A stretch of 290 nucleotides of DNA from a phage: sequence record AF056251.1; one strand, 5' to 3'. Shown one piece after another: positions 1-290 of this stretch (positions are counted from its first letter, which is position 1; each line of letters starts with the position of its first letter). The notes beneath the pieces were generated by a model. That model searched no databases, was not told the origin of the DNA, and was given only the letters and a program-made list of their open reading frames with translations. Both the position numbers and the translations under genes were made by a program.

Positions 1-12
1 AATGGACATACT

Positions 13-246
13 TTAAATAGTTATCTCACCAGGTTTGCTAACAGTAACAGCCGGAGTAGAGAAATTTTTATTAGTATATATTTCTACTTTGCCATTACGT
101 TCTTTAACATCACGCACTTTACCATATTCAGTAATGATGCCATTTTGTTGGACTTTAACATTACCGTTTTTCATAAAAACTTTGGTAGATGCTAGAGAAC
201 TGAAACTAACTGCCGAAACCATCAGTGCAATAATAAACTTATTCAT
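13..246 (-). CDS. Small secreted protein of unknown function: 77-aa precursor with an N-terminal Sec signal peptide and a basic mature domain of about 58 aa
   Basis: The minus-strand frame is open from 288 to the TAA stop at 15..13. I call the start at ATG 246..244 because GAGGAAG (253..259) sits 6 nt upstream and the encoded N-terminus MNKFIIALMVSAVSFSSLA has the n/h/c organisation of a Sec signal peptide. A 91-codon open frame is unlikely by chance in DNA this AT-rich, where stop codons are frequent (my rough estimate is about 1 in 1000). Third codon positions are A/T-biased, matching the overall composition. No homologue recognised from memory. Confidence 0.72.
   Translation of the reverse strand: MNKFIIALMVSAVSFSSLASTKVFMKNGNVKVQQNGIITEYGKVRDVKERNGKVEIYTNKNFSTPAVTVSKPGEITI
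190..246 (-). other. Sec-type signal peptide (residues 1-19, MNKFIIALMVSAVSFSSLA) with predicted signal peptidase I cleavage between Ala19 and Ser20
   Basis: It has a positively charged n-region (MNK), a hydrophobic core of about 12 residues (FIIALMVSAVSF) and a polar c-region ending S-L-A, which satisfies the -3/-1 small-residue (AXA) rule. There is no Cys at +1 and no lipobox, so signal peptidase II processing is not expected. Confidence 0.6.
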
Positions 247-252
247 CAGTAT

Positions 253-259
253 CTTCCTC
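253..259 (-). promoter_or_regulatory. Shine-Dalgarno ribosome-binding site (GAGGAAG) for the CDS starting at 246
   Basis: The reverse complement of 253..259 is GAGGAAG, complementary to the 3' end of 16S rRNA. It is followed by a 6-nt spacer (ATACTG) and then the ATG at 246..244. Confidence 0.6.
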
Positions 260-277
260 ACTACAGTCACGGCATAC

Positions 278-283
278 ATCATA
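278..283 (-). promoter_or_regulatory. Candidate -10 promoter hexamer (TATGAT) for the small secreted protein gene
   Basis: The minus strand reads TATGAT, a 5/6 match to TATAAT, 31 nt upstream of the ATG at 246. That would give a leader of roughly 24 nt. The matching -35 position lies beyond the window end, so this rests on the hexamer match alone, in AT-rich DNA where such matches are common. Confidence 0.2.
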
Positions 284-290
284 ATCATTG

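Follow-up and report, generated by a model that had tools for sequence, protein, structure and literature searches.

A truncated copy of the T5-like phage gene T5.052 and the predicted periplasmic role of its product

Background

Does the window analysed here, a stretch of 290 bases with a GC content of 33.8%, encode a new small secreted protein, or a form of something already on record? A preliminary description drawn from the letters of the window had reported a complete ORF of 77 codons with a good Shine-Dalgarno sequence, a cleavable signal peptide and a small basic mature domain, and had called its product unrecognised. We here ask which gene this is, whether the short form is natural, and what the product might do in an infected cell. 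The answer touches on T5, a classic model phage in which most early genes are without known function.

Results

Reading frame and start signals

The 77-codon ORF is indeed present and complete, and it lies on the minus strand, which had not been given (Table 1). It is the single long ORF of the window, and among shuffled windows an ORF of at least 77 codons occurs in only 0.6-1%. Its translation, read from position 246 down to 13, is MNKFIIALMVSAVSFSSLASTKVFMKNGNVKVQQNGIITEYGKVRDVKERNGKVEIYTNKNFSTPAVTVSKPGEITI. The ribosome-binding site rated as good has equivalents (GGGGAGGA or GAGGAAGA) in most of 28 IMG/VR relatives, and the relatives in the protein databases begin at the Met of MNKF or a few codons away from it. 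A 91-codon version of the frame, starting from an ATG at 288, was rejected: it crosses the upstream gene in another frame, is not preceded by a Shine-Dalgarno sequence, and the relatives start at approximately MNKF.

The composition reported for the mature part is correct for the window, where it comprises 8 K, 2 R and 5 D/E with neither Cys nor a second hydrophobic segment. It is, however, not representative of the family, as the relatives possess a tail with a CxxxC pair.

Table 1. Features of the window (feature, position, strand, remarks).
ORF, 77 codons + TAA	13-246	minus	ATG 246-244, TAA 15-13
Truncated copy of a T5.052 / BF23_00054 family gene	13-246	minus	phrog_4821, E 2e-42, profile positions 1-76 of 99
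Shine-Dalgarno sequence GAGGAAG	259-253	minus	6 nt before the ATG; inside the CDS of the upstream gene
Predicted signal peptide, codons 1-19 (MNKFIIALMVSAVSFSSLA)	190-246	minus	predicted signal peptidase I cut after S-L-A
Predicted mature part, 58 aa, basic and beta-rich core only	16-189	minus	relatives extend further: linker, CxxxC, acidic tail
Upstream gene, T5.053 / BF23_00055 homologue, last 16 codons + stop (...NDYDVCRDCSEEDTDE, stop)	239-289	minus	identical to Bf23
Divergent stretch	1-17		differs from all relatives; includes TAA 13-15

Identity of the gene

Judged by its nearest matches, the window is T5-like phage DNA and its gene is a copy of T5.052 / BF23_00054. Bf23 is the best of 441 matching T5-like phage records, with 98.2% identity over window 9-290, and window 65-290 matches Escherichia phage Bf23 at 100%. 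Identity of the window protein to 17 database proteins ranges from 78 to 99%; T5.052 is deposited as YP_006880.1 (phage T5, 98 aa, hypothetical) and BF23_00054 as WLW40663.1 (Bf23). The label "unrecognised" consequently has to be given up, because hundreds of T5-like phage genomes annotate the gene as T5.052 / BF23_00054, hypothetical protein. The window copy has the same start, Shine-Dalgarno sequence, signal peptide, core and upstream neighbour as T5.052 / BF23_00054, but differs from it by a private R72P substitution and by a stop after codon 77, and its linker, CxxxC pair and acidic tail are missing. An origin from the chromosome or a plasmid of E. coli was rejected, with 0 DNA matches in E. 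coli genomes and plasmids.

At the family level, PHROG 4821 (function unknown) is the sole match, and the picture of a small, secreted and poorly annotated protein is sustained by this match and by a layout kept in 25 members. No Pfam or NCBIfam model reached its cut-off, all matches being sub-threshold. Among the rejected candidates, BD_b_sandwich reached 15 bits where 26 were required in the Pfam/NCBIfam search. The BhsA / YdgH (DUF1471) periplasmic stress proteins (NF047859) reached 17.3 bits against 90, over residues 2-40 that are mostly signal peptide and with 0 Pfam matches, and the EF2685/EF0750 sortase-dependent surface proteins (NF053819) 20.1 bits against 47. An LPXTG motif is absent from the window protein and from its full-length relatives, and an Rfam search gave nothing beyond noise. 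T5.052 is unmentioned in the literature searched: the BF23 genome paper does not treat the gene, and essentiality data for T5-like phages are absent from the HIDEN-SEQ preprint.

The early stop codon and the missing C-terminal module

In its relatives the gene runs about 22 codons further and encodes a Ser-rich linker, a conserved CxxxC and an acidic tail; after ...GEIT their proteins continue as TQR-(Ser-rich)-F-T-C-R-Y-D-C-D-x-E-x-E(E/DE). This C-terminal module is missing from the window ORF, which ends at codon 77. The TAA of the window stands where 28 of 28 compared relatives have CAA, and it lies only 12 bases from the window edge. The surrounding codons read ACT ATT TAA AGT AT... in the window versus ACT ACT CAA CGT AC... 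in Bf23; at gene positions 230, 232, 235 and 239 all 28 relatives have C, the window T, T, A and T. Private differences occur at window positions 17, 15, 12, 8-4 and 2-1, and T5-like sequence cannot be aligned to bases 1-8. Outside these last 17 bases of the gene's strand, only positions 64 and 32 differ from Bf23.

Full-length forms prevail wherever relatives were found. In all 28 IMG/VR loci, a codon-by-codon reading gives 98-99 aa with the C-terminal tail present, and tblastn with a 99-aa query reaches the last residues in 8 of 8 metagenome loci and in 449 phage records. The database proteins likewise have 98-103 aa, the exceptions being P0009 (113 aa, owing to an internal duplication of 14 residues) and P0019 (a 49-aa partial sequence). 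The truncating allele gave 0 matches in INPHARED phages, IMG/VR, GTDB genomes, JGI metagenomes and the protein collection; the protein was looked up by exact match, window 1-60 was compared with phages by blastn, and IMG/VR, GTDB genomes and metagenomes were scanned for the exact pattern.

The length of 77 codons, the net charge of about +5 and the absence of Cys are all due to the private stop codon that truncates this copy. The full-length mature protein of Bf23, by comparison, has 80 aa with 2 Cys and 13 K/R versus 11 D/E (net charge about +2), and the 58-residue, basic, Cys-free protein would thus represent a truncation and not the natural product. We regard an artefact at the sequence end, or a junction in the source record, as the most likely cause of the short form. 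Alternatively, the 77 codons could be a true allele of a phage that makes a tail-less basic protein, either as a loss of function or as a functional short form. The given sequence does have a clean TAA, and in the model of the Bf23 orthologue the predicted core strands end at about residue 78, by which most of the core would be retained. Nevertheless, the stop replaces a codon that does not vary among 28 relatives, at least 7 private differences crowd into the last 17 bases after 226 identical ones, the tail is under purifying selection (see below) and present in every relative, and the allele is missing from every collection searched. We consider a natural allele improbable on these grounds.

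Selection and distribution

Over codons 1-76 of 29 distinct alleles, pN is 0.038 and pS 0.261, and the resulting dN/dS of 0.12 among relatives shows that the frame is truly coding. The ratio is 0.20 in the signal-peptide region and 0.11 in the mature core. For a stretch of 12 codons that surrounds the Cys pair and the beginning of the acidic tail, we obtain a pN of 0.07 versus a pS of 0.62, from which it follows that the part missing in the window is also constrained at the protein level. To judge from these values, the T5.052 family is under strong purifying selection. In the relatives the ORF is conserved together with its start and Shine-Dalgarno sequence.

An antisense ORF of 111 codons lies across both T5.052 and T5.053 in Bf23 (locus L001, 6027-6362, plus strand; over window 35-290). 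It is probably non-coding, the dN/dS pattern favouring the minus-strand frame.

Searches with tblastn located the gene in 531 phage records. Homologues in Tequintavirus and Epseptimavirus genomes have more than 76% identity, those of Erwinia phage KEY 38% and those of Klebsiella Sugarlandvirus phages (PHROG 30402) about 39%. Among 1.84 billion representatives, an exhaustive HMM search found only 13 matches, and relatives were found in 0 of 185,579 bacterial and archaeal species genomes. As far as found, the family is confined to T5-like (Demerecviridae) phages or phage-like contigs. One protein labelled as Enterococcus faecalis (P0017) is of T5 type in its sequence and probably reflects phage contamination of an assembly; in another (P0029) the C-terminus of T5.053 is fused to T5.052 and followed by a frameshift.

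The distant members (33-53% identity) have a signal peptide and always an acidic C-terminus, and most have a C-x-[YR]-x-C pair. Their common core motif is ...ENGI..YG.VR.V...G..IYTN.N...AVT..R.G.... The proteins of PHROG 30402 (e.g., IME260 APT41089.1) share with the T5.052 family the signal peptide, the beta core (39% identity) and the acidic C-terminus, as well as the flanking T5.053-like and BF23_00053-like genes. They differ in the absence of the Cys pair, the acidic tail following directly after the core.

An early operon with a mosaic slot

The flanking genes, taken from the relatives, form a conserved phage early operon of genes without known function, with HNH genes in one slot. In the window itself, the ORF is located immediately downstream of the T5.053 homologue, and the T5.053 stop and the T5.052 start overlap by 8 nt (ATGAATAA), a layout characteristic of translationally coupled genes. 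The order T5.054-T5.053-T5.052-(slot)-T5.050-T5.049-T5.048 is kept in all Tequintavirus and Epseptimavirus loci examined, and in Klebsiella phage IME260 a T5.053-like and a BF23_00053-like gene flank the 39%-identical homologue. A promoter-like TTGCTA-17-TGnTATAAT is situated upstream of T5.053 / BF23_00055, and early promoters are annotated, as is a terminator after T5.048. T5.052 is thereby shown as a predicted member of a transcript that it shares with its neighbours, read from a sigma-70-type early promoter upstream of T5.053. All neighbours of T5.052 are PHROGs of unknown function or DUFs (T5.049 is DUF7176, T5.054 is DUF7295), and the spanin, holin and endolysin genes belong to separate transcription units, 2-5 kb further downstream.

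The upstream gene, T5.053 / BF23_00055 (PHROG 2855; L001 6231-6512), encodes a Cys-rich product of 93 aa (CDSCSWWC...CRDC) with an acidic tail at its end, which looks like a zinc ribbon. Its acidic-tail codons GAG GAA GAT are the source of the Shine-Dalgarno sequence of T5.052.

The position right after T5.052 is a mosaic slot (loci L002 5639-6151; L027, L028, L029, L040, L042; L018-L020, L022). In the majority it holds a BF23_00053-type gene. Elsewhere it is taken by the HNH homing endonuclease hegE / F-TflV (in T5 and further phages), by another HNH gene or by an HNH remnant, or it is empty. The slot looks like an insertion hot spot of homing endonucleases, and the T5.052 tail is retained whatever its configuration.

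A similar overlap of coding and signal is seen at the other end of the gene. The tail codons GAA GGT GAA GAT GAA TAA (L001 5939-5970) contain an SD-like GAAGGTGA and an ATG; in BF23_00053 as annotated, this ATG is the second in-frame Met, and it again gives a ATGAATAA stop/start overlap. The alignment of PHROG 5486 to BF23_00053 begins only at this second Met. The annotated start of BF23_00053 may thus lie 8 codons too early, and the acidic tail of T5.052 is dual-coded with translation signals. The needs of the overlapping downstream gene, with its ribosome-binding site and its start codon, may partly account for the sequence of this tail, which would then not reflect protein function alone.

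Signal peptide and export

The N-terminus of the window protein has the signal-peptide layout reported for it: it consists of MNK with one Lys, FIIALMVSAVSF and SLA, followed by ST, and has a hydrophobic core of 12 residues (Kyte-Doolittle 2.5). The predicted cleavage between A19 and S20 yields the 58-residue mature part. A hydrophobic region of 10-15 residues and small residues at -3 and -1, without a lipobox Cys, are all present in the window protein, as signal peptidase I substrates have them. The same succession of a positive n-region, a hydrophobic h-region and a small-x-small c-region is kept in 25 of 25 members, down to 33% identity. We interpret this as a Sec-type signal peptide with a signal peptidase I site, and export is predicted from it. 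In two distant members (P0022 and P0025) a lipobox-like LLSC or ISSC replaces the signal peptidase I site; some lineages may make a lipoprotein version, and the motifs are an independent pointer to the cell envelope as the destination.

The T5 record describes the N-terminus of T5.052 differently, as one that "contains single transmembrane domain". Taken literally, this would make it an uncleaved signal anchor, and the product a bitopic inner-membrane protein, possibly in a complex with T5.049 and T5.048, which are annotated with two transmembrane domains each. Yet the hydrophobic core has only about 12 residues before polar Ser residues, fewer than a membrane span needs, in every member it is followed by a small-x-small motif, and the lipobox-like motifs of the two distant members likewise imply processing. 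Given the short core and the conserved cleavage motif, we regard a signal anchor as very unlikely.

Predicted fold

An AF2 model of the Bf23 orthologue, for which 25 sequences were aligned, reaches a mean pLDDT of 68. It predicts an all-beta core of seven short strands between residues 22 and 78, arranged as a meander with NG and G turns; block-mean pLDDT is 77-87 over residues 21-80 and below 50 in signal peptide and tail. Neither PDB sequence nor BFVD searches found fold relatives outside the own family, and no homology to Spackle, Llp, Cor or Rtp45 was found. The PDB sequence profile search gave one marginal match, to Rtp45 (E 0.9), which was rejected as a homologue with an hhalign probability of 9% over 22 columns. 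The 22-residue resemblance (G.V.V...GI....G.VRD) links residues 26-47 of the Bf23 protein with residues 49-70 of Rtp45 (L033 2688-2918, minus strand); we treat it as a chance local motif.

Discussion

The preliminary description had left the function between immunity or inhibitor proteins, periplasmic chaperone-like or stress proteins, and accessory subunits of adhesins or secretion systems. The phage context narrows these options: the protein would be made early by the phage and act in the periplasm of its host. We propose that the product of T5.052 is an exported early periplasmic binding protein that acts on the envelope of the infected cell, and give this reading, with identity, export and binding taken jointly, a probability of roughly 0.6. 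The protein would be exported by Sec early in infection, cut after Ala19 and released into the periplasm, where its two Cys would be oxidised, probably to one disulphide. It would work by binding rather than by catalysis, because it has only about 80 residues and no catalytic motif. The identity of more than 76% across Tequintavirus and Epseptimavirus genomes suggests as a target a component that is probably common to the envelopes of Enterobacterales or to T5-like virions. Such a target is unlikely to be the phage receptor, as the receptors differ (FhuA for T5, BtuB for BF23) and the known exclusion lipoproteins are receptor-specific and adjoin the receptor-binding gene. The conservation of T5.052 appears independent of the receptor used.

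What the protein would do at this target is a matter of several readings, none of which reaches the strength of the general proposal. Tentatively, T5.052 might stand for a new class of receptor-independent periplasmic effectors that have a basic beta-meander core and a disulphide-looped acidic tail, are made early by all T5-like phages, and are directed against a conserved envelope target. These effectors could, for example, block the periplasmic stage of the DNA injection of competitors or neutralise a host periplasmic enzyme, acting together with T5.053, T5.049 and T5.048 of the early operon. A role like that of Spackle, by which the infected cell would be shielded from envelope damage or from DNA injection by later phages, possibly jointly with the membrane proteins T5.049 and T5.048 from the same operon, is our preferred specific guess, suggested by analogy, and is in itself rather doubtful. 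About as likely as this, and accordingly unlikely in itself, is a periplasmic inhibitor of a host enzyme such as a peptidoglycan hydrolase, a protease or endonuclease I. Made early, such an inhibitor would keep the envelope or the phage DNA intact until programmed lysis, and the acidic tail would serve as a mimic of substrate or DNA.

For the window itself the outcome is sober: the gene was already sequenced and annotated, and its sole oddity, the short form, is most likely an artefact. The T5.052 family, being uncharacterised and without a fold relative, is a reasonable, though not an outstanding, candidate for a new effector of phages in the periplasm. All sampled T5-like phages keep the protein under strong purifying selection and are predicted to export it early to the periplasm, which makes it a candidate for a new envelope-directed takeover or exclusion factor. 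Such a factor would matter for competition between phages and for therapeutic cocktails with T5-like members.

Comparison with known exclusion proteins

Two types of known phage proteins invite comparison. Spackle (Sp, gp61.3) is a small protein that T4 makes early in infection; it has a cleavable signal peptide and works in the periplasm. Its fold is helical, and its membrane counterpart is Imm, a small protein with two transmembrane segments. Spackle and T5.052 have no sequence or profile similarity, and the helical fold of the former stands against the predicted all-beta core of the latter. The second type comprises Llp (T5), Cor and Rtp45, which are small phage proteins that are exported and attach to outer-membrane proteins of the host on their periplasmic side (PMC12685063, PMC9586334); Rtp45 is a superinfection-exclusion lipoprotein that binds LptDE (PDB 9RPS; PMC12685063, PMC9586334). 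The window protein and the Tequintavirus members lack the lipobox Cys of these three proteins, and the gene T5.052 is located far from the receptor-binding protein gene, unlike those of the known exclusion lipoproteins. The resemblance to the T4 pair, as a functional analogy only, lies in the arrangement: T4 pairs Spackle with a protein of two transmembrane segments, and T5.052 likewise shares its operon with T5.049 and T5.048.
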